64,000 bases of DNA from Escherichia phage 4MG. Where the stretch lies: sequence record NC_022968.1, one strand, 5' to 3'. Both the position numbers and the translations under genes were made by a program. Positions 937-48,488 of the stretch are shown piece by piece; position 1 is the first letter of the stretch; every line of letters starts with the position of its first letter. The notes under the pieces are model-generated. The model had not been told where the DNA came from and did not search any database. It saw nothing but the letters and a program-made list of their open reading frames with translations.

Positions 937-1548
937 TTAGTTTTTGCCAGTGTTGACAACAACGCCTTGGCGGTTTGCATCAGCTTTCGCGATTTCCAGA
1001 CGGGTTTCGCGTTCTGCTTTCAGATCTTCACGGGCAGCTTCAAGCTGTTCGGTCAGCATTGCGATACGATCTTTGTCTGCCTTGGTATTGGCATTCAGTT
1101 CAGCAATTGCAACCTTGTGAGATGCTTCCAGATTCGCCTTAACAGCGTTCAGTTCAGCATATACTTTCTGTTTTGCATCTGCAACAGCGGTGTTGATTGC
1201 ATCTTCGTTGCTGTCCTTAGCAACAGCCAGTTCGTTACGCAGACCATCAACGACACCCGGTTCGATAGCGACGAGGCCACGAGCCTTCAGCAGTGCGTTC
1301 AGAACGCCGTCTTCATTTTCCAGAACCTTGATCTTCAGCTTAGACTTTTCTTCAGCGAATTTCTCATCAAACTGAGCTTCAATCTGACCAAGCTCTTGCT
1401 GTTTAAACTGAATTTCCTGACTGATGCGCTCAGAACCATCTGCCAGAGATTGCAGGTCAGCGACGACCTTACTCAGACCAGAGGCAGCGGTTGCAACAGC
1501 TTTGGTAGCACGTTCAGTTACAGAAATTACAGTTTTAGAATCAGACAT
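937..1548 (-). CDS. hypothetical coiled-coil protein (203 aa)
   Basis: Track ORF; AAGGAGA SD upstream; composition similar to neighbour 214-861. Confidence 0.5.
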   Translation of the reverse strand: MSDSKTVISVTERATKAVATAASGLSKVVADLQSLADGSERISQEIQFKQQELGQIEAQFDEKFAEEKSKLKIKVLENEDGVLNALLKARGLVAIEPGVVDGLRNELAVAKDSNEDAINTAVADAKQKVYAELNAVKANLEASHKVAIAELNANTKADKDRIAMLTEQLEAAREDLKAERETRLEIAKADANRQGVVVNTGKN

Positions 1549-1588
1549 TAAGTTCTCCTTTGCATTAAATTGAGTTTAGATACTACAC

Positions 1589-1726
1589 TTACACGTTTTG
1601 TTTGTCAAGCGAATCTTTAATTATTTCTTCGGTTGTTGGATTGTTTTCAAACCACGACCAATAATACCAGGCAATAATCAAAGAACAAATCACCGACATA
1701 ACAACAAAAATTACACCACCGCTCAT
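1589..1726 (-). CDS. small hydrophobic peptide (45 aa), putative membrane protein
   Basis: Not in track (<60 aa); ATG overlaps stop of 1723-1911 (ATGA coupling); hydrophobic core VIFVVMSVICSLIIAWYYW. Confidence 0.35.
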   Translation of the reverse strand: MSGGVIFVVMSVICSLIIAWYYWSWFENNPTTEEIIKDSLDKQNV

Positions 1727-1911
1727 CGTACAACGTCCTTGATTGAATCACAGACTTCGCCAACAGCATCGGCAGTTGGAGATACGATCATCTCATCAGC
1801 AGCATTGATTGCTTCACCTGCAAGCTCCACAAATGGGGTAGCTACAGCGGCAGTCACTTCAACTGCGGTTCCAACAACATCACCAGCCATGCGTAACAGA
1901 GATCCGAACAT
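1723..1911 (-). CDS. hypothetical small protein (62 aa)
   Basis: Track ORF; AAGGAGA SD about 7 nt upstream of ATG. Confidence 0.4.
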   Translation of the reverse strand: MFGSLLRMAGDVVGTAVEVTAAVATPFVELAGEAINAADEMIVSPTADAVGEVCDSIKDVVR

Positions 1912-1927
1912 TTTGTTCTCCTTTTAA

Positions 1928-2011
1928 TGGTGGACGGAGGTAAGGATTCGAACCTTACGTGATGCGCCCCTAAGCTGGGGGTCCAGGGATTCCTCACCTG
2001 TAATTAAGCAT
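1928..2011 (-). other. tRNA-like element (pseudo-tRNA or unusual tRNA), isotype unresolved
   Basis: Minus-strand T-arm TAAGG-TTCGAAT-CCTTA and 3' terminal ACCA directly downstream of tRNA-Lys; no 5' acceptor strand complementary to the 3' strand found by hand. Confidence 0.3.
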
Positions 2012-2031
2012 TACTCCCAAAGTCCATTGTT

Positions 2032-2107
2032 TGGTGGGGCATGAAGGATTCGAACCTTCGACCTTCGGCTTAAGAGGCCGCTACTCTAACCGCTGAGTTA
2101 ATACCCC
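2032..2107 (-). tRNA. tRNA-Lys (anticodon CUU)
   Basis: Hand-folded 76-nt cloverleaf: acceptor GGGGUAU/AUGCCCC, D-stem ACUC/GAGU, anticodon loop CUCUUAA, T-arm GAAGG-UUCGAAU-CCUUC, encoded CCA. Confidence 0.8.
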
Positions 2108-2220
2108 GAAATTTGGCCAGTGTTTTTCAAGACGTTGCACGGAATCGTCACGGTTGCCGCAGCCCTTTATTTTAAGACGCATCGCCGCAGCCAGCTTCGT
2201 CTATCCCCATGCCGGAGGAA

Positions 2221-2550
2221 TTACTTCTTCTTACCTTTCGGCGCTACGGCTTCAACAACCTTAGCGTCTTTAGCTTTACCAGCGCGTTCACGCTTGGTCT
2301 TGCCAGTGCGAACACGGTGTGAGGCAGAAATCACCTGACCGCCTTCAACGCGGGAAACAGATTCCCATACGAATACAACGTTGCCGTCTTCATCACGACG
2401 CTTCTTGCGAATGGAAACGGTTTTTGTAACACCGCCCAGGCGAACATCGTGTGGTGCAGAGTGAGTCTGCGTTGACTTCGACTCAAACTGGAAAGGCTGT
2501 TTGATTGCGTCGATTGCAGAAACTTTCTTAGTTGCGTTTTTCTTAGCCAT
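2221..2550 (-). CDS. hypothetical basic protein (109 aa)
   Basis: Track ORF; AGGAGA SD upstream; Lys/Arg-rich termini, no motif recognised. Confidence 0.5.
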   Translation of the reverse strand: MAKKNATKKVSAIDAIKQPFQFESKSTQTHSAPHDVRLGGVTKTVSIRKKRRDEDGNVVFVWESVSRVEGGQVISASHRVRTGKTKRERAGKAKDAKVVEAVAPKGKKK

Positions 2551-2619
2551 GTTGTATTTCTCCTCTATTTGCTAATGCCTTGTTGACGTTGGTAATACTA
2601 AACTTTCGTACTTCCTTTG

Positions 2620-2787
2620 TCAATCGTTTTTTAAATCTTTTTTCGGTTCTTTGTGAAGGCCGCGTGAAATGTCGTAACGGTCATACACAGAGTTGCTGTT
2701 GCCTACAGATGTTACCTTTCTGGAATCCCAGTTGAAGAACATTCTGTTTGGTTTGCTCATTCCGAAAAACTCATAAATCTTGTTCAT
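2620..2787 (-). CDS. hypothetical small protein (55 aa)
   Basis: Not in track; GGAGAG SD then ATG immediately downstream of tRNA-Met on the same strand; low-complexity-free sequence. Confidence 0.3.
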   Translation of the reverse strand: MNKIYEFFGMSKPNRMFFNWDSRKVTSVGNSNSVYDRYDISRGLHKEPKKDLKND

Positions 2788-2801
2788 GGTCTCTCCTCGT
2801 T

Positions 2802-2878
2802 TGGTAGTTCTGGCAGGGATTGAACCTGCGACCTCTTCCTTATGAGGGAAGCGCTCTAACCAACTAAGCTACAGAACC
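2802..2878 (-). tRNA. tRNA-Met (anticodon CAU; elongator Met or lysidine-type Ile2 cannot be distinguished)
   Basis: Hand-folded 77-nt cloverleaf: acceptor GGUUCUG/CAGAACU (G1-U72 wobble), D-stem GCUU/GAGC, anticodon stem CUUCC/GGAAG with loop CUCAUAA, T-arm GCAGG-UUCAAUC-CCUGC, encoded CCA. Confidence 0.8.
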
Positions 2879-3083
2879 ATCTCGTCTTGTTGAGGTGAAT
2901 ACTACGCACTATCTTTTCTATTGTCAACGTCTTTTTCATTATTTTCGCAAATAAAACAAAACGTCGCTCTTTTAGGCCCTATGTACTCTTTACCGCACTG
3001 CTTGCAAGCCCTGTGGTGATACATTCCACGAAGGCTTTCATGGGGCCAATCCCTCTCTGAGAAAGCAATACACTGGTCCATCT

Positions 3084-3203
3084 TTAAACGCCCCAGTTTT
3101 CTTCAGAGGAAATACCCTCTCCGAAACCAACGAAAACATCTACGTCTTCAGCTTGGCGAATTCCTTCACCGTAACCAATAAAGCCGTCAAATTCGTCTTT
3201 CAT
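3084..3203 (-). CDS. hypothetical small acidic peptide (39 aa)
   Basis: Not in track; AAGGAG SD 7 nt upstream of ATG; weak support. Confidence 0.25.
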   Translation of the reverse strand: MKDEFDGFIGYGEGIRQAEDVDVFVGFGEGISSEENWGV

Positions 3204-3266
3204 CGTTTTGCTCCTTTTCGTTTTGAACGTGTAATCGCCGCTTCAGCACGGCGCTGTTTGCGGTTT

Positions 3267-3512
3267 TTAGACTGTCCGGAAGATTCGGAGAGCGTACTTG
3301 ATCGTGGAATCACCGTCAACGGGGTAGAAATAGTATAAGCCGCCTTCTTCTCCGAAGGATGCAACATATTTCCAGGTTTCAATGCCGTAGCCAGTCGTAG
3401 TAAAAGCGATATCATCAGCTTCTTCAGTCGCTTCGTCCAGGGTTGGGTGATGTGATTCGTGCTCAAGATACTCTCCATTATCAGATTTGTGTACAAGTTT
3501 AAGTTTAAACAT
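3267..3512 (-). CDS. hypothetical acidic protein (81 aa)
   Basis: Track ORF on the block strand; no motif recognised. Confidence 0.4.
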   Translation of the reverse strand: MFKLKLVHKSDNGEYLEHESHHPTLDEATEEADDIAFTTTGYGIETWKYVASFGEEGGLYYFYPVDGDSTIKYALRIFRTV

Positions 3513-3591
3513 AATGACCTACCGTTAGTTAATTAAGAAATCGAGTTGTTTCGATAACTTAGATCTTATCAGCGGTCACTATTTTTGTCAA

Positions 3592-3837
3592 TCAAACAAT
3601 GCCAGAGTCCTTGACACCCCGCGAATACTCTGCTATAGCCAGCTTTTGCTCTGGCGTTAGCTCTTCTTCATCCTCTTTCGGGTTCTCGATCTCAAGGAAA
3701 TGTTCCTCAAGTCCGTCAAGAACATCTGGTTCCCACGCTTTCTTCTGGTCTGTGTGTACAGAAGCACGATTAAAATCGTTTTTTGCAACGTAATTACGCA
3801 CTGAAATCAGACCCCTTAATCTGTTTTTCGGTTTCAA
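3592..3837 (-). CDS. hypothetical protein (81 aa)
   Basis: Track ORF on the block strand; overlaps end of 3794-4105. Confidence 0.4.
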   Translation of the reverse strand: MKPKNRLRGLISVRNYVAKNDFNRASVHTDQKKAWEPDVLDGLEEHFLEIENPKEDEEELTPEQKLAIAEYSRGVKDSGIV

Positions 3838-4105
3838 CGAGGTCTACATTCCCCGTTTTCGTGTTTACCCAGCGGGTTTCTGTCTTTGTTGCGTGCATTG
3901 TATGTCCACAACCAAAGGAAATGATGCAAACACCTGGGCCGTGGGCTTCAAGATCAGCTTCAAATTCCTGTTTACAGACTTTACACTCCATCATCACTGG
4001 TCCAAACATCTTAGGCTCCTTAATATAATATGGATTTGTTGGTGTGTTATTACACGTAAGGCAATCTCGTACTGGGACTTCATGCCACTTGCATGGATTT
4101 TCCAT
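3794..4105 (-). CDS. hypothetical Cys-rich protein, zinc-ribbon-like (103 aa; true start may be internal Met)
   Basis: Track ORF; CKVCKQ ... CGH cysteine pairs. Confidence 0.4.
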   Translation of the reverse strand: MENPCKWHEVPVRDCLTCNNTPTNPYYIKEPKMFGPVMMECKVCKQEFEADLEAHGPGVCIISFGCGHTMHATKTETRWVNTKTGNVDLVETEKQIKGSDFSA

Positions 4106-4144
4106 AGCCTACCTATCAGAAAAGCCCCCGAAGGGGCTTGTGGA

Positions 4145-5827
4145 TTACAGTTGAGCGGCTGCTCGTTCACGAATCGTTGTCAGGTCTTCATCGACAATCA
4201 GTTTGCCGTTGTAGAACACACGACGCAGTTCGTTATCGTCAGACTGTACATCTTCAAGCTGACAATTGTCAATCAGTTCTAGCTGACCAAACATATTGCG
4301 AACAACCTTCAGGAAACCTTTTGCAGACTTCTTACCGAGGTCAGTCTTAGGTTCTTTGACAACCATGATCTGCTGACCATCAATAACCGCACCAGTTGCC
4401 TTCACAGCCATACCCAGTGAATCGCGGGTTGTGTACTGGGTAGTAAAGGAACCAACACCGTACACGATATTGCTGGATGCAAAGCCTTTATCTTTCAGAC
4501 GTTCAAAGATGTCTTTTGCACGAGCAACAGTGATAGAGTCACCGTAGATCAGGCCAACATGACTATCCAGAACTTTGTAACCCTTGGAGTTAACTTCACC
4601 ACCAAAGATTTCCCACAGACACTGGATTGCACCTTTGACTTCATGGTCTTGCAGATCGGAAGGCTCAAGATCAAGGTAATCCGTATCTTCATCGAATTCG
4701 ATGTTGTAATACTTACCTTTGACTGATACAACTTCACCTTTCTCGCTTTCCCATGCTGCGTCTTTGGCTTCAGACAGCGTTTCGAAATCACCAATATAAC
4801 GATACCCCGCAATGATATGTTCCGGAATGCCTGAATCAGGACGGAACACAACACGACCGTCACGAGCCATGATTTCTTCTTTCAGAATCAGTGCTGCACG
4901 GGTAATAATCGCCCAGAAGTCATAGCTGTCTGCTACGTAGGAAACAAAACCTTTCGGGAAAATTTCCGTGATGTAGCGTTTCAGGAATTCAACTTCAGCC
5001 AGGAAACGCAGTTCATCCAGGGACAAATCAGGATTTTCAGTTTTCAGGCGACCGACGATAAAGCCAATGTTAGTTGTTGCAACACTGTGTTCTGATGCAG
5101 GAATAGAACCAGCAACGAACTTACCTTTCATGTTGTAATAACGGTTCGCATACAGAATCGCAGGAATGGTATCTGTACCCATTGAGTTGATCAGTTGACC
5201 AAACTCACTCTGTGCCGCGTCGTGAGTACCAGATTCACCGCGATAAGCGAAGCAGTGGTTCTGGAACGGAACATGCAGGTTGTTATCACAAGTTTCGGCA
5301 GCGTATGCTTCAGACAGTTTGCGATACTGCCAGAAGGTAGTTGCAGTTGTGATGGTTTTCCATGTCTCTGCGGAGATCACGCTTTCCAGGAAGTTCGGCA
5401 ACCAGTAAAAATCAGGGTGCGTGTTCTGAATGGTGAACAGCGGAACCTGTACCGGGGACAGAGTGCCTTCAGGAATCGAACGGATTTCCAGTGGCAGGTA
5501 ACCAAGGTCATGCAGCTTTTCAAAGCCCCAGGTTTCAACCATGTCCGGGCCGATGCTCAGTTCACAAATTTCTTTGTACTGTGCGATAGCCGCTTTCTTT
5601 TTCATTTTGAAAAAGTTTTCGTTGAACAGGTCGATCAGGAACCATTTGATGAAACCTTGCAAGCCAGCCATCATCACACGCTGATCGTTATCAGCGAAGT
5701 GAATGAAGTGCTTTGCATTGCGTGGTGTCATGTTGTCCTGAACAATTTCAGAACGTCGGTCATACATGGAGATGTGTGAAGGTTTGTAAAAGTCAGCGAA
5801 TACGAGTGGGCTTTCTTTATGCAGCAT
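4145..5827 (-). CDS. nicotinamide phosphoribosyltransferase (NAMPT) family protein; candidate nicotinamide ADP-ribose transferase of an NAD+ reconstitution pathway
   Basis: 560-aa track ORF with AAGGAGA SD; NAMPT motif set FADFYKPSH, PLEIRSIPEGT, FTIQNTHPDFYWLPNF, AYRGESG, ASEHSVATT, VADSYDFW, FRPDSGIP. Confidence 0.88.
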   Translation of the reverse strand: MLHKESPLVFADFYKPSHISMYDRRSEIVQDNMTPRNAKHFIHFADNDQRVMMAGLQGFIKWFLIDLFNENFFKMKKKAAIAQYKEICELSIGPDMVETWGFEKLHDLGYLPLEIRSIPEGTLSPVQVPLFTIQNTHPDFYWLPNFLESVISAETWKTITTATTFWQYRKLSEAYAAETCDNNLHVPFQNHCFAYRGESGTHDAAQSEFGQLINSMGTDTIPAILYANRYYNMKGKFVAGSIPASEHSVATTNIGFIVGRLKTENPDLSLDELRFLAEVEFLKRYITEIFPKGFVSYVADSYDFWAIITRAALILKEEIMARDGRVVFRPDSGIPEHIIAGYRYIGDFETLSEAKDAAWESEKGEVVSVKGKYYNIEFDEDTDYLDLEPSDLQDHEVKGAIQCLWEIFGGEVNSKGYKVLDSHVGLIYGDSITVARAKDIFERLKDKGFASSNIVYGVGSFTTQYTTRDSLGMAVKATGAVIDGQQIMVVKEPKTDLGKKSAKGFLKVVRNMFGQLELIDNCQLEDVQSDDNELRRVFYNGKLIVDEDLTTIRERAAAQL

Positions 5828-5880
5828 GTTTTGTTTCTCCTTTGTGTGTTTTGATGGGGTGATTCTACACCCCGTTTCGT

Positions 5881-6414
5881 TTAGATGTCAAGTGAAAAAT
5901 CTAAAGATTTAGATTCTTCTGTTACAACCGTTGTTTCTTTAACCAGACGACAGCCTTTCACCTTGATTTCTTTGGCTGGTGACCACTTAGTCGCACGGAT
6001 ATAGAATGTGTTTGCACGAATAACCATGAACCGGGCTACATCTTCAGGTGGTTCCTCGTTAATAAAAATCGCAACACTTTCGTATGCAGGCCACTTCATA
6101 GGGTTTTCATCGGTAACATCGGAATGTATACCATTACCGTTGTTAGTGCGACCCGGTGTAGGCCAGATAGTACAAGGTCGATAGCAGGCGTGGTCATCAG
6201 GAACCTGAATAACGTGATTTTCTAACCACGAGCAAATTTTTTCCAGGTCAAAATCATAATGGTCTTCTTTCAGGTCTTCAATATCTGTACGATATTCAGC
6301 CCCAACACCACACTCACCGATTTGCCCGGTAATATGAGCGCACATGTCACGCTCAAAGTTTCCTGCGTATGAGTCAGTATCGACAACAAAAATAAAACGA
6401 GTTGATTCAGTCAT
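5881..6414 (-). CDS. hypothetical protein (177 aa) embedded between the NAMPT-like and Prs-like genes
   Basis: Track ORF; stop/start abuts 6414-7214; no motif recognised (no Nudix box, no P-loop). Confidence 0.5.
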   Translation of the reverse strand: MTESTRFIFVVDTDSYAGNFERDMCAHITGQIGECGVGAEYRTDIEDLKEDHYDFDLEKICSWLENHVIQVPDDHACYRPCTIWPTPGRTNNGNGIHSDVTDENPMKWPAYESVAIFINEEPPEDVARFMVIRANTFYIRATKWSPAKEIKVKGCRLVKETTVVTEESKSLDFSLDI

Positions 6415-7214
6415 TAAAAATTCTCCGTCCAGTCATGGTATGCGTAGATTTCATCAACCCCGCCATCGAGGATGATTTGTTTCCCGAATGAGAAAATGCC
6501 GTGCGTAACGTAAAGGATAACACGTTTTGCACCATTCTCTTTCAGGGCTTTAGCCAGGGCGATGAAGGTACGACCACCATCACAGATATCATCGACGACA
6601 ACGCATTCGCGTCCTTCAACATCACCAAAGATTGCTGTCCCCGTAATTTCGTTTGTTTTCAGGTCACGAACCTTACCAGCTTCAACCAGAGGGAGTCGCA
6701 TACGGTCGGCAACCTTCTGTGCCTTCTTGCGAGCGCCTGCGTCTGGTGCAACAATGGTCACATCTTTCCCGGCAAGTTGATCATGGAATTCTGCAACAAG
6801 AATCTCTTGTCCACGAATCTGAACATTGTCCAGCAGTGCAGCAGAAACATCACTGTGTGGGTCATCAACAATCACTTTGTCGAAGCCAAGCGAGTTGACG
6901 AGGTTTGCAAAAACCTTGATAGATAGTGACTGTCCAGGTTGCATCACGCGATCCTGACGGGCATACGGGATGTATGGCAGGTGCAGGGTAAACTCAGCAT
7001 GGTTATGCAGCCCTTCAAGACGGGAACATGCATCCACCAACATAGCTAATGCCATGACATCGGTGGAGTTTTTGATTTTTGCAGTGATATCGACGAAACC
7101 AATACCGCCTTTTGGGGCATGTTTCAGATCAATCTCAACCTGTTCCTCACCACCCTTGAAGGTGAAGTGGTTAACAGGCACTTCCAGTTTGTTCAAGCGT
7201 AATTCAATACTCAT
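6414..7214 (-). CDS. ribose-phosphate pyrophosphokinase (Prs) family protein; candidate ADP-ribose pyrophosphokinase
   Basis: 266-aa track ORF, AGGAGA SD; Prs motifs PYIPYARQDR and VVDDICDGGRTF, GAKRV; shorter than cellular Prs. Confidence 0.88.
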   Translation of the reverse strand: MSIELRLNKLEVPVNHFTFKGGEEQVEIDLKHAPKGGIGFVDITAKIKNSTDVMALAMLVDACSRLEGLHNHAEFTLHLPYIPYARQDRVMQPGQSLSIKVFANLVNSLGFDKVIVDDPHSDVSAALLDNVQIRGQEILVAEFHDQLAGKDVTIVAPDAGARKKAQKVADRMRLPLVEAGKVRDLKTNEITGTAIFGDVEGRECVVVDDICDGGRTFIALAKALKENGAKRVILYVTHGIFSFGKQIILDGGVDEIYAYHDWTENF

Positions 7215-7215
7215 T

Positions 7216-7533
7216 TTATTTCTCCTCTATCCAATCGTGAATTTCGTAAACCGTTTTGTTGTGGCCCATATTGGTGCGTGTTGTATCCTTTGTCAACCAT
7301 TTTATTTTCTCAAGGTTACCCACACACCGGGCAACAGTCGCCCTCGATAATCCTGTGGCATCAGCGATACTATCAAGTGACTCATGGTAAGTTTTCCGGA
7401 GAGACTTGAAGTAATGATACTGATGACGCATGTAGAGGTACACAATCTTGTCGTTGGACGAGGCGCAGGTCACCGACAGCAACTTCAGTTCGAAGTTACC
7501 GTAGATGTGCTTACCTGACGCGATGTACCCCAT
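7216..7533 (-). CDS. helix-turn-helix DNA-binding protein, putative transcriptional regulator (105 aa)
   Basis: Track ORF, GGAGGAGAG SD; HTH-like segment SIADATGLSRATVARCVGNL; first gene of leftward block next to divergent control region. Confidence 0.5.
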   Translation of the reverse strand: MGYIASGKHIYGNFELKLLSVTCASSNDKIVYLYMRHQYHYFKSLRKTYHESLDSIADATGLSRATVARCVGNLEKIKWLTKDTTRTNMGHNKTVYEIHDWIEEK

Positions 7534-12875: not shown

Positions 12876-14179
12876 TGTCAATTAGTTTAGACACACCAAC
12901 ACTATACGCCATTAACAAGGACGGATCGTATCAAGTTTGGAATGTAACCACAGAAGGTGATGAGGTTGTCGTTTCTTTCGGTAAGGAAAATGGAAAGATT
13001 CAACAAAAGCGCACCAAGTGTGAAATGAAAAACATTGGTCGTTCCAATGAAACCACCGCTGAGTTCCAGGCCGTCCTGGAGGCCCGGTCTAAGTGGGAGA
13101 AACAGGTCCGTTTAGGTTATCGTGAGACCAAAGAGGAGTTACAGACGGAAGAGAACTTCTCTCCTATGCTGGCACACGATGCGATCAAACGGTCAAAGTC
13201 AATCGTCTATCCTGCGTATATTCAGCCAAAGCTCGATGGTGTTCGTGCTCTTGTGACGCTTGACAAGGACGGCATCCCGGTGTTTAATAGCCGTGGCAAC
13301 AAAACATACCCAGTACAGGGCGCTTTATTGCAGCAAGTTAAAGAACTTGCAGAGCACACAGGGTTTGACAAGTTCGATGGTGAACTGTATATTCATGGTC
13401 TAAGCCTTCAGAAGATTGTTGCTTTGGCTAAGAAGTGGCGCACCCCTGAACAGATTGAAGCTGAGATCGAGAAAGACTATCAGGCTGATATCAAGCGCTG
13501 TAATAAGGCGGTTGCCGATGGTGAGCATCTCTGGAAAGACTTTGATGGTAATGTGTGGGCTGTTTCCACGTATAAACCAGTAAAAGACGTTGACCGCTTC
13601 AGTGGTTATTCCAGTCTTGACCTAGAGTATCACATCTTTGACATTCCTGTGAATGCACAAAGCCCTTGGTACTCTTATGAGCATGATAAGACCAGACATC
13701 AAGATCTGTTGGTGGTTGCCGATGCTGTTGAATGTGAACTTAACGTACCTATGGTGAAAGTTATCCACGGGATCGTGGTATCTTCTGAAAGGGAAGTTAA
13801 ATGGTCCATCGGTAAATACATGGAGCAGGGATTTGAAGGTTCAATCATCCGAAACTTCAAAGGTGTCTACGAATTTGGTCAACGATCCTCTGATCTCCAA
13901 AAATGGAAACAGTTCCAGGATGGTGAGGCAAAAGTTCTTGATTCTGTAGAGGATAAGAACGGTGAGGGTGTCCTGCTCTGTGAAGAAAGAGATGGTACTC
14001 GATTCAACTGCAAAATGAAAGGCACTCACGCAGAGCGTTCTCAGGCGAAGATGCTATTGTTGGTTGGCGATTTCATCAACTTTACATTCCAGTCGCGTAC
14101 TGATGATGGTGTACCTCAGTTCCCGGTGGGGCAGAGTGTACGTGAACTTGATACATTAACATGGGAGCCAGTATACTAA
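12875..14179 (+). CDS. ATP-dependent DNA ligase
   Basis: 434 aa; motif I KLDGVR, motif IV-like FEGSIIR; size typical of phage ATP ligases. Confidence 0.8.
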   Translation: MSISLDTPTLYAINKDGSYQVWNVTTEGDEVVVSFGKENGKIQQKRTKCEMKNIGRSNETTAEFQAVLEARSKWEKQVRLGYRETKEELQTEENFSPMLAHDAIKRSKSIVYPAYIQPKLDGVRALVTLDKDGIPVFNSRGNKTYPVQGALLQQVKELAEHTGFDKFDGELYIHGLSLQKIVALAKKWRTPEQIEAEIEKDYQADIKRCNKAVADGEHLWKDFDGNVWAVSTYKPVKDVDRFSGYSSLDLEYHIFDIPVNAQSPWYSYEHDKTRHQDLLVVADAVECELNVPMVKVIHGIVVSSEREVKWSIGKYMEQGFEGSIIRNFKGVYEFGQRSSDLQKWKQFQDGEAKVLDSVEDKNGEGVLLCEERDGTRFNCKMKGTHAERSQAKMLLLVGDFINFTFQSRTDDGVPQFPVGQSVRELDTLTWEPVY

Positions 14180-14625
14180 TGGGATTCTATAAACGTAAAC
14201 CTCAGGAAGTTGAAGCACACGTATTCAACGGATCGAGCACAGGGGTTGGTCAGGTGACCAAGTGGATCGAGACCGGGGTCTGGAAAGACGCTGAGATCCA
14301 CACACGGGATATCCGAAATATGGACGTGAATGGCGTTCAGGCGTTTCCTGGTGATTACATAGTAAAAGTGGGTGACCAGTTCACAGCAATGTCCCCACAA
14401 GCGTTCAGCGACCTTTATGAGGCTGTTAGCGATGAAGATCGTCTTCCAGGGGACTACAAAGCAAAGAACGTAGTGATGGGTGACAAAGTTGAGATGTGGG
14501 GTAAAGACTACATCGTAAAAGGTCACAAAATCAGTGGTGACGATATTATCCTCACCCTTGATGACGGATCTAACATTCAGCTTCGCGGCGAAGCAACCGT
14601 GAAGGTAACAGAGGTACGTGCATAA
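14179..14625 (+). CDS. hypothetical protein (148 aa)
   Basis: ATG after GGGAG SD in frame of track ORF. Confidence 0.45.
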   Translation: MGFYKRKPQEVEAHVFNGSSTGVGQVTKWIETGVWKDAEIHTRDIRNMDVNGVQAFPGDYIVKVGDQFTAMSPQAFSDLYEAVSDEDRLPGDYKAKNVVMGDKVEMWGKDYIVKGHKISGDDIILTLDDGSNIQLRGEATVKVTEVRA

Positions 14626-14996
14626 TGATCTGGTACTGGCTGGCGCTCTTAGGCGCAACACTGGTCACAGGGGGCGGTATTTATACCGCTTTCCGTTTCC
14701 GGAAAGACAAGCTCGATGACTTTATCGACTGGATTCAGGGTAAAGTAAAACGACTGCTGTTGATTTGGGCTGTGGTGTTGGGCCTGGTAACGCTGGCCCT
14801 TACCAAACCGTTGTGGAACACCATGACCTGTCAGTTCGACGGCATGGCCTACAAGGTGAATACGTCTTATTCTTGGTATAAGAATGGGACATATGGCGAC
14901 AAATGCCTGTTCGTTGCTAAGAACGGTGCTCTTTTGCCATTACGAATTATCCGTGACCAACCGGAAGGTGATCACGCAACAGATGTAATTAATTAA
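14625..14996 (+). CDS. membrane protein (123 aa)
   Basis: Track ORF; two predicted TM helices. Confidence 0.45.
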   Translation: MIWYWLALLGATLVTGGGIYTAFRFRKDKLDDFIDWIQGKVKRLLLIWAVVLGLVTLALTKPLWNTMTCQFDGMAYKVNTSYSWYKNGTYGDKCLFVAKNGALLPLRIIRDQPEGDHATDVIN

Positions 14997-15005
14997 GGAG
15001 AATCA

Positions 15006-15695
15006 ATGAGTAAGGTTTACGAAACACTTTTAGCGATGACAAAACCAACAGATCTGTACGCATATGCGGAGCATGTTATCGAATGGAACCATGTTGCATA
15101 TCGTGCTCGCAATAATGTGGCAACACCATTCGATCTGCAATGGGGCTTTATTCGTGAAGAATTCAACGAACTCGTTGACGCACTCCGTGTTGGTGACCGT
15201 ATCGAAACTGTTGACGCTGCCTGTGATCTCTTTGTTGTAGCTTCATACGCTTGCCAGTTGAAGAGTCCTGAGTATCTTCGTGAAGCCTGTATTCCTTCAC
15301 CGACACTGACGTTCACTATTGGCGATCTTGAGCACAACCTGTATGGCAATATGCGAGACCCGGTTTATGTTCTTAAGCTGGTAACTGCATTATGTTATCG
15401 CCTTGATATTAATCTTGACTACAATATGCGACAGGTGTTACATTCAAACGATACCAAATACCCATATGTGCAAGATATCCTTGCCTTGTGGCCTGGTAAG
15501 GCGAAAGCCGAAGCTTTACGTCAAGAATGTAAGGCAATCGAAGATCGTTCCAATGGTCGTTATGAGGGTGTTGGTTTCCGCGAGGTAATTGATATCCGCA
15601 ACCCGGATGTTAAAGGTTCACGCCTTGTCTTCTTCGATAGAAACGGAAAAATCATGAAGCCAAGCACTTTCGAAAGTCCGAAAATTATTGCTTGA
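15006..15695 (+). CDS. mazG: MazG-like nucleoside triphosphate pyrophosphohydrolase
   Basis: 229 aa; EExxE-type motif REEFNELVDA followed by ETVDAACD. Confidence 0.55.
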   Translation: MSKVYETLLAMTKPTDLYAYAEHVIEWNHVAYRARNNVATPFDLQWGFIREEFNELVDALRVGDRIETVDAACDLFVVASYACQLKSPEYLREACIPSPTLTFTIGDLEHNLYGNMRDPVYVLKLVTALCYRLDINLDYNMRQVLHSNDTKYPYVQDILALWPGKAKAEALRQECKAIEDRSNGRYEGVGFREVIDIRNPDVKGSRLVFFDRNGKIMKPSTFESPKIIA

Positions 15696-42798: not shown

Positions 42799-43449
42799 AT
42801 GGAAGAGATGCTATTGGTTGGTGGTGGAAAATCACCTGGGGTCACTGTCCTTGATATTGACCCATCAAAACAAACCCTTGGACAAACAAACCTTGTAGAT
42901 GTCTACGGGCATCCGTTTACAAAGGTTGGGGCTGGCAATGCCATAATTCAGGATGTCTCTGGTCAAGGAAGGGTCATGTCCTTCCCAGGATCAGCATACT
43001 TCGAGACACCAATGACGGCAGACATAAGCATGGCAGTAGGTAAATTTGAAGTTCGTTCTGAGTTTTATCTCAACAATACCGCAACTATGGCAGTATGGGG
43101 TACAGGGGATTATGTCTCTACAGGAAATATTGTTGGTGGGGTATTGCAGGTGGCGAACCTGTCTGGAGGTTCTCAGTATTTTGTTACAGACAATATTGGA
43201 AACTTTGTGAGGGCATTCTTCAGTCCGGCTGCTCCGGGGTGGAATGATTTCTCAATGATTTGGGACTCAACAACCAAAGTTATGAAAGTAGTGAATAACA
43301 ACAATCCTTTAGCGACACAACAATACATAATTCCATATGGCTTTGGAAACGGGACAAAGTTGAGTGTCGGGGGAAGCTATCCACGAGGAGTCGGTTCTTA
43401 TACCCTACAGGGATACCTGAAGCGGTTGCGGATCATTAAGTTATCATGA
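42799..43449 (+). CDS. LamG/concanavalin-like beta-sandwich protein (paralogue of 47782-48435)
   Basis: 216 aa; beta-rich, Gly/Thr-rich; shares N-terminal M-x-E-M-L ... GKS-P and C-terminal Y-L-K-R-L-R-I pattern with 47782 ORF. Confidence 0.35.
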   Translation: MEEMLLVGGGKSPGVTVLDIDPSKQTLGQTNLVDVYGHPFTKVGAGNAIIQDVSGQGRVMSFPGSAYFETPMTADISMAVGKFEVRSEFYLNNTATMAVWGTGDYVSTGNIVGGVLQVANLSGGSQYFVTDNIGNFVRAFFSPAAPGWNDFSMIWDSTTKVMKVVNNNNPLATQQYIIPYGFGNGTKLSVGGSYPRGVGSYTLQGYLKRLRIIKLS

Positions 43450-43522
43450 TTCATCCTGTCTCCTATATAATATCTTGACTAACCATGATAAAATGGAGGT
43501 TAATAATATGATAGGAGGTAGT

Positions 43523-44011
43523 ATGTTTCAGAAATTAGTTCGTGAACACCCTACCCTACAAGAACACTGGCAGACCCTGCTGGAAAAGGGGTTCATAGAG
43601 AACTCTAAGGGTTGCATCGCGCTTGTACGCAAGTACGCCGCTGATGAAAGAGTGCTTATTATCAGGGATGCTAAAAACAGTATCCTTTATACCATTCGTG
43701 TAGGGCGATTGGAAGTTACTCGTGGCGTAGACACACAAAACCCGGTGACGTATACATTCCGTGTGGGTGATATGGGGAAGCTCGACCCAGAGCATCTGGA
43801 AGAGGCATTTGACCAATATGAGGGTTTTGAGACTTCCATCCGTGATCTCTATCGTACAATCGACAGGATCATTAACGAGTATAAGAAGTCTCTTGGATGG
43901 GGATACAGAATCAAAGATTGGTTCAGAAACCCGCCGAACAAGGTGTTCTTTGCTGTATTCGTTATCTATGCAATAATTAGCATGGTTGTGTATTTCTATC
44001 CACTTTTCTGA
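43523..44011 (+). CDS. hypothetical protein with C-terminal transmembrane anchor
   Basis: ATG after AGGAGG; hydrophobic C-terminus VFFAVFVIYAIISMVVYFYPLF. Confidence 0.45.
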   Translation: MFQKLVREHPTLQEHWQTLLEKGFIENSKGCIALVRKYAADERVLIIRDAKNSILYTIRVGRLEVTRGVDTQNPVTYTFRVGDMGKLDPEHLEEAFDQYEGFETSIRDLYRTIDRIINEYKKSLGWGYRIKDWFRNPPNKVFFAVFVIYAIISMVVYFYPLF

Positions 44012-44016
44012 GGAGA

Positions 44017-44418
44017 TTGTCTATGAGGGACAGAGGAGATTATTACCGTAAGTACGCCGAGCGGAGGCGAATGATAGACCGTGAGCGTCGTTCTACGCCA
44101 GAAGGAAAGGCAAGGCAGTTACAGATCAGGCTTGAGCGTATCGAGGCTGAGAAACGTGCAACCATGCACAGTGAGTGGGACATCTTTGTAAGAGAAGAGG
44201 CCAACCATCTTTGCAACGTGAGGATGTGTGAAACTGGCATCCGTTGGGAGCCAGACCACATGCTGCCCCTCCGGGCAAAGATTGTCTCCGGCCTTAACTG
44301 TGGTGATAATATCCAGGTAATCCCTGCAAAGATGAATCGTAGCAAAAAGAACCACATGATTTATACCAACCGCTTTGAGTGGATTAAGGATTTGGAGACC
44401 GTATGCAGGATGAAATGA
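44017..44418 (+). CDS. HNH endonuclease
   Basis: 133 aa; HLCNVRMCE ... EPDHMLP ... NCGDNIQVIPAKMNRSKKNH HNH-type motifs. Confidence 0.6.
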   Translation: MSMRDRGDYYRKYAERRRMIDRERRSTPEGKARQLQIRLERIEAEKRATMHSEWDIFVREEANHLCNVRMCETGIRWEPDHMLPLRAKIVSGLNCGDNIQVIPAKMNRSKKNHMIYTNRFEWIKDLETVCRMK

Positions 44419-44897
44419 TTAGACTGTTTGTAAAAGACACCAGCCACGAGGTGATAAGCAAACTCCCCGGAATATCTAGTGCTGTTGCACAGGTAAAGTC
44501 CGGGGTTTGTGGGGCAATTGTTTTTGTCGTGAAGTCAAAACACAACATTGATTCTGAAGGCATACTCAATCCAAGATTGGTTATCACAAAGAGTGCTGGT
44601 AAGAATGAGCAGATATTTATGATAGCCACGAGTAAGGATGAGAAGATTTGGATTCATCCGGACGAAGTTTTCATTGGTAACACCCAGGTCTACAACCGGG
44701 ACATGTTCTTTGATGCTTCTGCTCCAACTGAGGAAGAAGTCCAAATGCTGAGAATGGCTAAAGGTGCGGATTTGGATGCCCTTATGAAGGCATTTGGGAA
44801 AGTCCCCGGAAGGATTATGGAAAGGATAATGTCCGGGACTTTTGTGGAAGAGTACACAGCGGTAACCAAAGAAAAGGTAATCGTTTTAATGGGATAA
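44403..44897 (+). CDS. hypothetical protein (164 aa)
   Basis: Track ORF. Confidence 0.45.
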   Translation: MQDEMIRLFVKDTSHEVISKLPGISSAVAQVKSGVCGAIVFVVKSKHNIDSEGILNPRLVITKSAGKNEQIFMIATSKDEKIWIHPDEVFIGNTQVYNRDMFFDASAPTEEEVQMLRMAKGADLDALMKAFGKVPGRIMERIMSGTFVEEYTAVTKEKVIVLMG

Positions 44898-44923
44898 CCC
44901 GCCTTGAGCGGGTTTTCTTTTAT
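44896..44923. terminator. bidirectional intrinsic terminator (AACCCGCCTTGAGCGGGTT flanked by A-run and T-run)
   Basis: Hairpin sits between convergent genes 44403-44897 (+) and 44920-45234 (-). Confidence 0.5.
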
Positions 44924-45234
44924 CTGTCTTTTGACATTTTCTCAATAACGAGCCTGTCAGAATCATCCAACAGCATGAGGTGCTCTAAAGGAATGTCAAT
45001 TGTTACTGGCATACCCCTAACGTGACATTCAAACCAGATGTCGTCTGGTGGGTATGGGATACGATCAGGTCCAAACTTTGATCGTTGGATCACAAAGCAT
45101 TCACGACCATTAAGTTGCCCGGTAAGAGGGTTTTTAGGGCTGAATCCGTACAGAAGGCAAATGGTGTCCTCGCGTACACGGTTATCTGGTTCATTGCGGT
45201 CTGGACGACCACCCTTATCTTCGAGTAATTGCAT
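44920..45234 (-). CDS. hypothetical protein (104 aa)
   Basis: Track ORF on minus strand inside the + block. Confidence 0.45.
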   Translation of the reverse strand: MQLLEDKGGRPDRNEPDNRVREDTICLLYGFSPKNPLTGQLNGRECFVIQRSKFGPDRIPYPPDDIWFECHVRGMPVTIDIPLEHLMLLDDSDRLVIEKMSKDR

Positions 45235-45539
45235 TATTTGACTCCAAAGTTGAGTTTGCCATTGAGCTTCTGCACACGATGCGGCAGTATTTCTTCATAC
45301 CACCAATCTTTCTCATGAAGACGGTATGATACGTGGGTCCCATAAGTATCTTCCTGACCGTTCTCACCCTTGATGCGGTAAGTCCTGGTGAAGATGTCAC
45401 GGATTGTTGCTTCAAACTGACCATCGATCAAGACGATCTCATTGTATTTGTACTTATCTTGTTCTAAGATTTCTTGAGACATTATGTTTCTCCTTTGTGT
45501 TGGTAAGGTAAGATTATCAGTGAAATTATTTTTAGTCAA
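45234..45539 (-). CDS. hypothetical protein (101 aa)
   Basis: Track ORF; AAGGAGAAACA SD; coupled to 44920-45234. Confidence 0.45.
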   Translation of the reverse strand: MTKNNFTDNLTLPTQRRNIMSQEILEQDKYKYNEIVLIDGQFEATIRDIFTRTYRIKGENGQEDTYGTHVSYRLHEKDWWYEEILPHRVQKLNGKLNFGVK

Positions 45540-45543
45540 TAGT

Positions 45544-45572
45544 TGACATCATCTTTATTCCTGCCATAATGG
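45544..45572 (+). promoter_or_regulatory. sigma70-like promoter TTGACA-N16-CATAAT
   Basis: Hexamers read directly in divergent gap before 45602 ORF; coordinates +/-2. Confidence 0.45.
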
Positions 45573-45601
45573 TTGAACACAAACCGTTTCAAGGAGAAAC
45601 C

Positions 45602-46750
45602 ATGAAAAGCATTAAACTGAGCATTGCACCAACCTACGTAGCCCATTGGTCATGGTGGGAGGGCGTTCGTGAACTCATTCAGAACGCCATTGACGCTGGT
45701 GACCACGAAGTTGTGTTCATTAAGGACACCATTTCAATTGCATCCTACGGTGGTAAGCTGCCTATCCAATCCCTCCTGATGGGTAAGACCACTAAGGAAG
45801 ATGATGATACCAAGATCGGTAAGTTTGGCGAGGGGATGAAGGTAGGTTTCCTGTGCCTGTTACGTGAAGGTGCAGACATTACCATGTACAACGGTCGAGA
45901 TCTGTGGAAACCAGAGCTTGCGATGGATGATGTGTTCGACGAGAAGGTTCTCTCTGTCAATATCGAGGAGGGGCGTTTCCCTAATCGCTCTGAGGATTGT
46001 GTTACCATCCATATCAAGAATGTTCCTGAACACGCCATACGTGAAATAAAGAACAACTATGCCCCGGAACGTGCTAATCTTGAGGTGGTGTTTGAAGCAG
46101 AGGGCTATGGTAAGGCCTACGCGAAAAAGAACGAGCGTGATTACAAGGATTGCCGTCTATACGTTAATGGCCTGTACGTAACCACCGTTGAGGGTAAGTA
46201 CAAGTTCGATTATGACTTCCCGGCAGACCGATTCACTCTGGATCGTGACCGTAACCAGGCAAGTGAGTTCGAAGTTCGCTGGAATGCAACCCGTCTTCTG
46301 TCACAATCTGACGATGTGCTTATGCTGGCAGACCTGGGTGTTGGTCAGTACGATGACCTTGAGCACTTCGATAGTCAGAACGAGTCAAGCTATTATGTTC
46401 GTGGTTATGAACAGGACACTCTCGAAGAACGGGCGGTATCCATCTTCCGTGAACAAAATGGTTGGAAGGCATTCCCTATCAATGCCAATTGGTCTGATAG
46501 TCGTAAACGATTAGTTACTGAAATGGCGATCAGCCACGGCAAAACTCCGGTGACAGTCAAGAAAGCAGCCTACCAGATGCTGAAACACGAGTTTTCTGTG
46601 CCTGAGGAGATCAACGAAATGGTTGAATTCAAGGCTCTTAGCTACCTTGAGAAATTCCTTGCAAAACACGGTCGAAAACTGTACAGTAAGCCGCGTAAGG
46701 ACCTGGAAAAAACAATCCATATGCTAAAAGTGGCTAAAGGGGAAGCATGA
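45602..46750 (+). CDS. GHKL-type (histidine kinase/MutL/Hsp90-like) ATPase-fold protein
   Basis: About 382 aa; N-box ELIQNAIDAG and G2-box-like GKFGEGMKVGF; the D-x-G-x-G box is not evident. Confidence 0.45.
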   Translation: MKSIKLSIAPTYVAHWSWWEGVRELIQNAIDAGDHEVVFIKDTISIASYGGKLPIQSLLMGKTTKEDDDTKIGKFGEGMKVGFLCLLREGADITMYNGRDLWKPELAMDDVFDEKVLSVNIEEGRFPNRSEDCVTIHIKNVPEHAIREIKNNYAPERANLEVVFEAEGYGKAYAKKNERDYKDCRLYVNGLYVTTVEGKYKFDYDFPADRFTLDRDRNQASEFEVRWNATRLLSQSDDVLMLADLGVGQYDDLEHFDSQNESSYYVRGYEQDTLEERAVSIFREQNGWKAFPINANWSDSRKRLVTEMAISHGKTPVTVKKAAYQMLKHEFSVPEEINEMVEFKALSYLEKFLAKHGRKLYSKPRKDLEKTIHMLKVAKGEA

Positions 46751-46908
46751 CATACTCGATCTACGGCAGAATGTCAAAAGACTCGGCCTCCCGCGAGGGG
46801 GCCTGGTACTGTTTGAAAACTAAGGTTTCTGTTGACAATGTTCAGCAGGTTATGGAATACTACGCTAAGACATGGCGATATGTGGAGAAAAGAAATGAAA
46901 TTGAGTGA
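46747..46908 (+). CDS. hypothetical small protein (53 aa)
   Basis: Not in track; ATGA overlap with upstream stop. Confidence 0.3.
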   Translation: MTYSIYGRMSKDSASREGAWYCLKTKVSVDNVQQVMEYYAKTWRYVEKRNEIE

Positions 46909-47143
46909 AATCAAAAAGGTCCTTGAGCAGTCCCGCTCTAATGGTATTTATTTTCACGATAAGGGTTGGAATCAGGACCCAGGAAGTGTTCGTGGACTGG
47001 CCTACCTCTCTAAGGATGGTCATTTGTTCATGACCTACTTACACCCACTTAAAAATAGGCGTGTGGTACGTCCATTCACGCCGGACATGGAAAACATGCT
47101 CAGACCGTCAGAGGGCCTTGTCATCTGGGAGGGTTCTGTATGA
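46895..47143 (+). CDS. hypothetical protein (82 aa)
   Basis: ATG in frame of track ORF 46832-47143. Confidence 0.4.
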   Translation: MKLSEIKKVLEQSRSNGIYFHDKGWNQDPGSVRGLAYLSKDGHLFMTYLHPLKNRRVVRPFTPDMENMLRPSEGLVIWEGSV

Positions 47144-47334
47144 AAATTTCAAGCAATATGAAGAACTTCCTCATCGGCTTTCCGGTAGTGATTTTCGTTC
47201 TGGTAACTCTCGGCTTCCTGATCTCAACTTTCGGCCCAGGCTCCCTATTAATCCTTGGATTTTTGGCATTTTTCGGGATGATCGGGATTGTTGTTGGGGA
47301 TTTTATTCGTGATAAGTTCGGGGTCTGGAAATGA
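47140..47334 (+). CDS. small membrane protein (64 aa)
   Basis: Track ORF; two hydrophobic helices. Confidence 0.45.
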   Translation: MKISSNMKNFLIGFPVVIFVLVTLGFLISTFGPGSLLILGFLAFFGMIGIVVGDFIRDKFGVWK

Positions 47335-47507
47335 CAGAACAAGAACTACGTGTGCAACAGGCAGGTGACCTGTTGCATTACATTGAGAAAACGCTGCTGT
47401 TTGAGGCGGTTTTTAATTACTGGGAAGACCGTTGTCGGGTTGCAGACAAGATTAAAGAGCTTCACGAAATGGCTGTAGAGCCACGGGAGCCGTATGCAAA
47501 GTCGTGA
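47331..47507 (+). CDS. hypothetical small protein (58 aa)
   Basis: Not in track; ATGA overlap with upstream stop. Confidence 0.3.
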   Translation: MTEQELRVQQAGDLLHYIEKTLLFEAVFNYWEDRCRVADKIKELHEMAVEPREPYAKS

Positions 47508-47742
47508 TTATCGTGAGCTACTGAAAGAGATCCACGGGGATTCTATTGATAACTGGTATCTCCCAGAAGAAGAGTGGGGAAAGGAGAACGCTATGGGCGG
47601 TGAAAATATTCTGGAGTTCATTAACCACGAGGTGTGGAAAGACACCGACACAGGGCAATGGCGATTCAAGGACAAGCTTTTCAAGCGAGAGGGTCAGGCC
47701 CGTAAAGCGGCACGTCTGTACTTTCGCAAGAAATTCTCCTGA
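47494..47742 (+). CDS. hypothetical protein (82 aa)
   Basis: Track ORF. Confidence 0.4.
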   Translation: MQSRDYRELLKEIHGDSIDNWYLPEEEWGKENAMGGENILEFINHEVWKDTDTGQWRFKDKLFKREGQARKAARLYFRKKFS

Positions 47743-47781
47743 TTTTGTGATAAAATAAAGGTTTACAAATAGGAGGAAATA

Positions 47782-48435
47782 ATGTTAGAAGCGATGTTAA
47801 CAGCGGGTAAGAGTGCCCCAGTTGTGGGTAATAAGACTCTTCTTCTGCTACAGGCAGATAAAGGCGGTGTCGATCAGGCAAAAAGTGACAGGGTGTTCTC
47901 TAAAGTGGCGACAGTTAGTACCACAACCACAGCAAAGTTCAACAACAAGCAGTTTGATTGCCTGTCTGCGGCAAGTTATTTTGAAATAATGGCGGCAAAC
48001 AAAACAGACCTTGTTTTTGGGTCAACAGATGACTACACTATCGAATTCTGGTGTAAGAACTCCAGTGTTGCATCCTCGTGGTGGTTGTATTTTGGAACCG
48101 GAACACAAAGTTGCTTGAAGGTATATCAGAGCGTTGTCTACTTACAGGATCAACTGAGGTATCTAAGTTTTAACTCAAACTTCTGGCCTTTATCAACATG
48201 GGCGCATATAGCAATTGTTAACAAGGACGGTATAACAAAGCTTTATATCAACGGGTCAACCGCTGTGACTGGGGCTGGTTTTGCTTCTGGGGGTTGGAGT
48301 CTCCCATCTGTCTATGCGCGAATTGGGTATGGTGAGGCTACAGCGTTTGCATACATGGACCAAATCAGGATCAGTAAGGTTGCCAGGTATAGCGGTAACT
48401 TCTCTGTTCCAACAGCACCCTTTATTCTTGATTAA
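47782..48435 (+). CDS. LamG/concanavalin-like beta-sandwich protein (paralogue of 42799-43449)
   Basis: 217 aa; beta-rich; AGGAGGAAATA SD. Confidence 0.35.
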   Translation: MLEAMLTAGKSAPVVGNKTLLLLQADKGGVDQAKSDRVFSKVATVSTTTTAKFNNKQFDCLSAASYFEIMAANKTDLVFGSTDDYTIEFWCKNSSVASSWWLYFGTGTQSCLKVYQSVVYLQDQLRYLSFNSNFWPLSTWAHIAIVNKDGITKLYINGSTAVTGAGFASGGWSLPSVYARIGYGEATAFAYMDQIRISKVARYSGNFSVPTAPFILD

Positions 48436-48456
48436 GGCCCTTAGGGGCCTTTTTTG
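48435..48456 (+). terminator. intrinsic terminator (AGGCCC-TTAG-GGGCCT + TTTTT)
   Basis: Hairpin and T-run immediately after stop at 48435. Confidence 0.6.
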
Positions 48457-48459
48457 TTG

Positions 48460-48488
48460 TTGACATCCAGAAAAATAGCTGGTACGCT
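48460..48488 (+). promoter_or_regulatory. sigma70-like promoter TTGACA-N17-TACGCT
   Basis: Hexamers read directly after terminator; coordinates +/-2. Confidence 0.4.

Follow-up and report, generated by a model that had tools for sequence, protein, structure and literature searches.

Why should a phage keep two small LamG-like proteins among its replication genes, and where would such proteins act? The question is raised by Escherichia phage 4MG (NC_022968.1), of which a 64,000-nucleotide (nt) stretch, called the window throughout, carries two plus-strand open reading frames (ORFs), P1 (positions 42799–43449, 216 amino acids (aa)) and P2 (47782–48435, 217 aa), each encoding a stand-alone protein of this kind. 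An initial annotation described them as paralogues in a non-structural region, and suggested from their location among early genes that they may act in or on the infected cell and not in the virion. The evidence from related phages opposes this last inference: homologues of both proteins, together with a different protein, CB7_55, that begins with the same type of short N-terminal peptide (the tag), have been detected by mass spectrometry (MS) in virions. Because other tagged proteins occur in the particles of related phages, we regard P1 and P2 as more likely to be minor parts of the virion than intracellular proteins, and we favour, at slightly better than an even chance, a reading in which they are minor accessory virion proteins of lectin type that are docked by the conserved N-terminal peptide.

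Both ORFs lie where they had been annotated, each is preceded by a Shine–Dalgarno sequence, and both are conserved genes, with 6 clusters at ≥76% identity for P1 and 27 clusters, all assigned to Pfam PF13385, for P2. AlphaFold2 (AF2) monomer models bear out the beta-rich composition first noticed: with 14 strands in P1, 13 in P2 and at most one short helix, both form a two-sheet beta-sandwich jelly-roll, the P1 model being of medium confidence only, and profile comparisons agree with the assignment of both to the LamG/ConA-like fold. P2 matches PF13385 (Laminin_G_3) over residues 77–201 with 33.8 bits (E = 4.6e-8; gathering threshold, 27.6 bits) and phrog_3545 at positions 733–977 of a 1,115-position profile (E = 9.5e-44). 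P1, the more divergent jelly-roll, matches phrog_6011 over residues 1–215 (E = 3.4e-71); it has no Pfam match at E-values up to 1 and hence falls below the PF13385 threshold. A PDB sequence search returned generic LamG domains only for P2, no match for P1 and no solved virion containing a relative of either. Neither protein has a signal peptide or a membrane segment. With the PF13385/ConA-like domains of phage tail, baseplate and fibre proteins both share the fold, and P2 also the Pfam family; in most phages, however, LamG domains lie inside proteins of 500–6,000 aa (the PHROG profiles matched by P2 span 976–6,136 positions), whereas P1 and P2 are free-standing. On virion surfaces, phage domains of this kind usually have carbohydrate or protein as their ligand, and by analogy binding of either by P1 and P2 is plausible.

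The word paralogous holds for P1 and P2 as far as distant homology is concerned and fails where it implies a recent duplication. Compared directly by BLASTP, the two proteins show no significant similarity (E = 0.054, with z about 4.5 against shuffles), and a comparison of shallow profiles is weak (E = 0.026). Aligned by hhalign, a 42-sequence profile of the P1 family matches the P2 family with a probability of 91.1% and E = 1.1e-6, collinearly over 182 columns, and CBB_551 bridges the two families, since it belongs to the PHROG of P1 (E = 1e-40) and itself matches PF13385 (E = 2e-12). Because of this bridge and the deep-profile alignment, P1 is by sequence comparison a member of the superfamily and not of the PF13385 family, and P1 and P2 are distant homologues of the same architecture at about 20% identity. 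The terminal motifs quoted initially are present in both proteins, which begin with MEEMLLVGGGKSPGV (P1) and MLEAMLTAGKSAPVV (P2) and end with GYLKRLRIIK (P1) and AYMDQIRISK (P2); in the hhalign alignment, the C-terminal motif GYL..LRI.K is the last conserved segment of the shared domain.

At the N-terminus, the tag of P1, MEEMLLVGGGKS (42799–42834, plus strand), aligns in hhalign with that of P2, MLEAMLTAGKS (47782–47814, plus strand). Both are predicted to be disordered, with a predicted local distance difference test score (pLDDT) below 50 for residues 1–9 of P1 and 1–15 of P2, and thus lie outside the folded domain in the AF2 models. Within the window, the similarity of the first 16 residues of P1 and P2 ranks first among 286 ORFs by a single score point (25 versus 24) and so proves nothing alone; its significance comes from comparison across genomes. 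The motif of P1 and P2, which we call class A, reads M-x-E followed by three hydrophobic residues and occurs in the Vequintavirinae (Seunavirus and Certrevirus) and in Serratia phage PCH45, its carriers being P1, P2, GAP31_106, gp10 and gp19 of PVP-SE1, proteins of CR9 and KaOmega, CB7_55 and proteins of PCH45. The tag variants of P2 orthologues fit M-x-E-x-[MIL]-[LI] in all 27 clusters. Across the whole genome of Cronobacter phage GAP31 (1,988 candidate starts), three small LamG genes are the only ones with class A at a true N-terminus: GAP31_108 (P1-type), GAP31_094 (P2-type) and GAP31_106 (PF13385, E = 6e-10; MQEMLLGG...). CR9, KaOmega and the 213-kb PCH45 carry it on P1-type and P2-type proteins, and two further carriers, CB7_55 and gp19 of PVP-SE1 (280 aa, phrog_4474; 14790–15632 of GU070616), have no LamG signature. 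At least three PCH45 proteins of about 215 aa bear a class-A tag (MLETIL, MLENLL and MLESML), so the class is not confined to the Vequintavirinae. As a side observation, the annotated start of PVP-SE1 gp10 at 6809 (MLLQADK...) is probably wrong: if begun at the GTG at 6752, 57 nt upstream, the protein gains VKELLLVGGRAGPSDGDTR, which restores the class-A tag of all orthologues, and we propose 6752–7417 of GU070616 as the gene; the record note of GAP31_094, 'similar to ADP02406', refers to this gp10.

A second tag, class B (MLPFxRxxxYGN), characterizes the Rak2-like jumbo phages (Mimasvirus and Eneladusvirus). It is common to seven consecutive CBB genes, eight XbC2 genes, GAP32_001, GAP32_002 and GAP32_530, and five pEa_SNUABM_47 genes, and the bodies behind it are LamG domains, Kelch propellers or RCC1-like propellers alike. 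Orthologous bodies carry class A in the Vequintavirinae and PCH45 and class B in Rak2-like phages; CB7_55 (class A), for one, is homologous to XbC2_589 (class B). An exhaustive hidden Markov model (HMM) search of 1.84 billion proteins returned 39 representatives of the P1 family, all free-standing proteins of 210–228 aa that are never fused to another domain, and every one is tagged (class A in 26, class B in 13). On a tree of the bodies stripped of their tags, built by neighbour joining without support values from very divergent sequences, a minimum of six switches of tag class is needed, and class-B relatives surround the P1 clade. Because all 39 representatives are tagged and their bodies show these repeated switches, the tag, as far as the compared sequences go, tracks the phage lineage and not the domain or its fold. 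It is a short N-terminal peptide conserved within a phage group, differing between groups and found on non-homologous bodies, the pattern expected of a peptide that fits a lineage-specific partner.

The case for a place in the virion comes from tagged proteins of related phages. CBB_548, CBB_549, CBB_551, CBB_552 and CBB_553 were identified by electrospray ionization tandem MS in purified CBB virions (Buttimer 2017, PMC5259590); P1 shares 32% identity with CBB_553 and 30% with CBB_549, and P2 shares 36% with CBB_548. Pectobacterium phage CB7, a Certrevirus from the same subfamily as the window, supplies a further case: CB7_55 (238 aa; 14133–14849 of the CB7 sequence examined), which starts with the class-A tag MQEMMIVTSKPG and adjoins the DNA polymerase gene, is an MS-confirmed structural protein, and the only one of CB7 whose gene lies away from the structural region. 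In three Erwinia phages of the genus Eneladusvirus, ghost particles analysed by liquid chromatography–tandem MS contained four 'putative DNA condensation proteins' of 38–41.6 kDa, represented by 3–25 peptides against 834–1,337 for the capsid protein; an Eneladusvirus genome annotates four RCC1-type proteins, and the three examined all begin with MLPFPI. Such low counts point to minor components, so that of the initial proviso, that P1 and P2 might prove to be abundant virion components and simply structural, presence in the virion stands for related phages and abundance does not. Two candidate lines of support were set aside: the 'structural protein' annotation of a P1-type gene in Eneladusvirus was made by similarity to CBB and is hence not independent, and a 24.1-kDa entry in the Erwinia MS table, which gives no locus tags, could not be assigned to the P1-type gene.

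The virion data also bear on the fate of the tag. Two peptides in the CBB report, LLQYGNK (residues 7–13 of CBB_553) and YANVIVEYATK (residues 10–20 of CBB_548), derive from the tag region, and each is preceded by R or K, a tryptic N-terminal boundary; the tag region is therefore retained in the mature CBB particle and is not cleaved off. From the sequences and by analogy, the products of P1 and P2 would be carried on the 4MG virion itself, each as a jelly-roll of about 200 residues preceded by a flexible tag of about 10–15 residues (M-x-E, three hydrophobic residues, then G/A-G-K-S). The tag would serve as a lineage-matched incorporation peptide by which the protein is fitted into a shared site on the particle, where P1 and P2 would most likely add weak glycan or protein binding, and the genes would be scattered gain-and-loss cassettes of the replication arm, though their products are virion-borne. 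The gain and loss of such genes can be followed between close relatives. In GAP31, GAP31_107 is followed directly by GAP31_106, a third tagged LamG gene; the window lacks the whole of this gene of about 610 bp relative to both GAP31 and Enterobacter phage EC152, with the flanks aligning cleanly around a junction at about 44011–44017, which indicates that tagged LamG genes are gained or lost between close relatives.

Several observations weigh against this reading. All of the virion MS evidence comes from other phages and concerns either homologues that are 30–36% identical or a different tagged protein; tag retention, likewise, was seen for class-B homologues at this level of identity only, and the tag-class switches depend on the unsupported tree described above. 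No large tail-fibre protein shares the tag in the class-A scan of the GAP31 genome. The RefSeq label 'virion structural protein' on GAP31_108 is apparently propagated and not measured, and the GenBank record of PVP-SE1 calls some genes 'structural protein' but the P2-type gp10 a 'conserved hypothetical protein'. The cryo-electron microscopy paper on phage phi92 describes no small LamG accessory protein, a point qualified by the fact that no P1- or P2-type homologue in Escherichia phages was found among the tblastn matches listed. P1 has no promoter-like element of its own and starts 7 nt after the preceding early-region gene, and the unit that contains P2 is headed by a near-consensus sigma70-type promoter (45543–45570, plus strand; TTGACA-16-CATAAT with TG, 11 of 12 matches) and ends at the terminator of P2, so early or middle expression is possible; the total of promoter-like sites across the region did not exceed the shuffle expectation, and only this site was retained.

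An alternative that we consider rather unlikely, in line with the initial annotation, is that P1 and P2 are non-virion proteins binding host glycans or proteins in the cell or at its envelope, for instance in takeover, superinfection exclusion or envelope remodelling, with the shared motif as a localisation or stability signal. The genome setting speaks for it. The window is, judging from its sequence, part of a Seunavirus (Vequintavirinae) genome of rV5/PVP-SE1-like type, the 42–49-kb stretch being about 85% identical to EC152 over 95% of its length and 84% identical to GAP31 over 83%. Synteny with GAP31 identifies the plus-strand block from about 8 kb to 54 kb as the replication and nucleotide-metabolism arm (ligases, ribonucleotide reductase, thymidylate synthase, PhoH, ClpP, a CCA-adding enzyme and others) and places a nucleotidyltransferase, an endonuclease VII-like gene and the CCA-adding enzyme among the neighbours of P1 and P2. 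The two genes thus do lie in a non-structural region, as first described, and at a great distance from the structural module; small early-type genes stand close in front of P1, the P2 unit has its sigma70-type promoter and PVP-SE1 gp10 bears no structural label in GenBank. Against an intracellular role stand the detection of homologues of both proteins in virions, the precedent of CB7_55, a virion protein with a class-A tag whose gene lies among replication genes, and the absence of signal peptides and membrane segments from P1 and P2. PADLOC, moreover, found no match to any defence or anti-defence model in P1, P2 or their neighbours, save a weak TmtA match on a 393-aa neighbour.

The late-like signals around P2 also count against an intracellular role. 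An extended −10-like element, TGATAAAAT, lies at 47748–47756 (plus strand), 34 nt upstream of the P2 start, and is a candidate late-type promoter; a second copy (43486–43494, plus strand), the only other one in the 64-kb window, lies just downstream of P1, before the next gene, in a stretch that is 100% identical to GAP31. The element is defined from a handful of sites. All five GAP31 copies fall between genes and point the same way as the gene that follows; among them, two open the tail/baseplate units 216 and 224, one stands before GAP31_094 and one before GAP31_107-106. The first 50 kb of PVP-SE1 have it at no sites other than the matching structural genes 48 and 56, plus a variant at 65. 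This distribution hints at late-type transcription. P2 has the appearance of a self-contained cassette: besides the element, it has a strong Shine–Dalgarno AGGAGG read from the sequence (47771–47776, plus strand) and a strong intrinsic terminator found by a terminator scan directly after the gene (48434–48461, plus strand; a 7-bp stem with five GC pairs and a T-run). In a separate 209-kb phage contig, a P2-type gene directly follows two same-strand genes encoding proteins of 2,291 and 792 aa, the larger of which belongs to a tail-fibre PHROG and has a lysozyme-like domain.

Detection in virions is equally compatible with packaged cargo. We hold it unlikely that the tag is a targeting signal resembling the capsid-targeting sequence (CTS) of phage T4, by which the LamG proteins would be packed inside the head or tail, ejected and active early in the host. 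In T4, the CTS of the internal proteins IPI–III and Alt is removed by the prohead protease at (L/I)-x-E. A short N-terminal peptide common to unrelated proteins, which in this scenario directs them to the particle, is the very design of the CTS; Kelch and RCC1 domains are typically intracellular binders, and the genes lie among early genes. Unlike the CTS, the tag persists in mature virions in the class-B homologues, where the tag-derived CBB peptides with their tryptic K/R boundaries contradict the cleavage that the T4 model predicts, and neither tag class is followed by a conserved (L/I)-x-E site. The tagged RCC1 proteins, furthermore, stay in ghost particles prepared by freeze–thaw, and domains akin to the LamG domain of P2 occur frequently in the proteins of tails, baseplates and fibres. 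An uncleaved cargo signal is possible.

That the motif has no separate function and is simply the inherited first segment of an old family of ordinary LamG proteins, as the homology of P1, P2 and GAP31_106 and the barely above-background similarity of the N-termini in the window would allow, is very improbable given that class B is common to LamG, Kelch and RCC1 folds, that class A is also present on CB7_55 and PVP-SE1 gp19, neither with a LamG signature, that orthologous bodies bear different tags by lineage with at least six switches, and that the tag lies outside the folded domain.

Docking by a short peptide, as favoured here, has precedents. Conserved N-terminal docking peptides of secondary receptor-binding proteins have been described for the K1-5/K1E/SP6 (hepta- and undecapeptides), KP34 (MALxxLV), KP32, Menlow and phiK64-1/RaK2 groups (Latka 2019, PMC6872550) and have been validated experimentally (PMC13352976). 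Like these peptides, which range from 7 to about 12 residues, the tags are largely hydrophobic, conserved within a group, different between groups and shared by otherwise different proteins of one genome, with exchangeable binding modules behind them. The known peptides, however, belong to large trimeric tailspikes or depolymerases whose genes form part of the structural module and which attach to an adapter or to a T4 gp10-like branching domain, whereas P1 and P2 are single LamG proteins of about 215 aa (their jumbo-phage counterparts including Kelch and RCC1 proteins) with other tag sequences and genes scattered among replication genes. The AF2 models show one domain of some 200 residues in each, and neither a fibre nor a beta-helix portion. 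Since they are neither fibres nor spikes and do not lie in a structural module, P1 and P2 would by analogy at most work like this docking-peptide class and are not members of it. The direct homologues of P1 and P2 are found in the cluster formed by CBB_548–554 and GAP32_001–002 and 530–531 (PMC5259590), whose products have the same length and the same build of a tag and a stand-alone jelly-roll; this cluster differs in having the class-B tag and in being arranged in tandem with Kelch and RCC1 genes near a genome end instead of being scattered.

More tentatively, and with a little less than an even chance, the tags may belong to one shared plug-and-socket system spanning rV5-like myoviruses, some chimallivirus-like jumbo phages and Rak2-like jumbo phages. 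In such a system, a lineage-matched tag of two classes would mount changing LamG, Kelch, RCC1 or other heads on a common virion site, the heads would be transferred horizontally and acquire the local tag, and their genes would act as autonomous cassettes placed away from the structural module; P1 and P2 would count as two of these heads, and a third, present in GAP31, would be missing from the window. Searches of the literature returned no description of either tag, and queries for the MLPF motif and for LamG in Vequintavirinae gave nothing; in the papers on CBB and CB7 the proteins are listed as structural with no assigned role, and the CBB paper is silent on the shared N-terminus. In themselves the two LamG genes are unremarkable, and the novelty lies in the tag system, which varies a principle already known.

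Should the tag be a portable incorporation signal, it would explain the MS-confirmed 'orphan' structural proteins encoded far from structural genes, such as CB7_55 and CBB_548–553, and annotators of Vequintavirinae and jumbo phages would have an easy sequence criterion by which to recognize minor virion proteins. It would also provide a peptide of about 12 residues with which to display foreign domains on therapeutic phages of the PVP-SE1/GAP31 type while leaving the main tail fibres untouched, and it may be relevant to the unassigned decorations or whiskers of CBB-like phages. Otherwise, what is left is a pair of ordinary LamG accessory genes.

Other features of the region deserve mention. 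The stretch between P1 and the next gene (43450–43525) is 100% identical to GAP31 within flanking coding DNA of about 85–90% identity, and contains the motifs TATATAAT and TTGACT besides TGATAAAAT. The gene that follows (43523–44011, plus strand) is a GAP31_107 homologue of phrog_7821, labelled 'virion structural protein'; its product ends in a C-terminal hydrophobic helix that differs in sequence from that of GAP31. Many product names in the GAP31 RefSeq record (NC_019400) are apparently machine-propagated and implausible, among them a 58-aa 'baseplate wedge subunit', 'tail proteins' of 86 and 128 aa among early genes and three ORFs of about 93–107 aa each named 'DNA ligase'; because this record calls early-region ORFs of 58–86 aa 'baseplate wedge subunit' and 'tail protein', its 'virion structural protein' labels were not used as evidence.

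In the tRNA region, a minus-strand gene at 217–861 encodes a 215-aa protein matching phrog_1491, 'tail fiber protein' (E = 4e-82), and is thus another nominally structural gene located outside the structural module; we rejected it as a further tagged member, as its product is strongly helical/coiled-coil, untagged and unrelated to P1 and P2. The 393-aa neighbour with the weak PADLOC match to TmtA (E = 2e-4) is encoded at 45569–46750 and is a GAP31_101 homologue of phrog_6077; its N-terminal ELIQNAIDAGD recalls GHKL/Bergerat-fold ATPases, and phage CB7 has a shorter relative, CB7_61.

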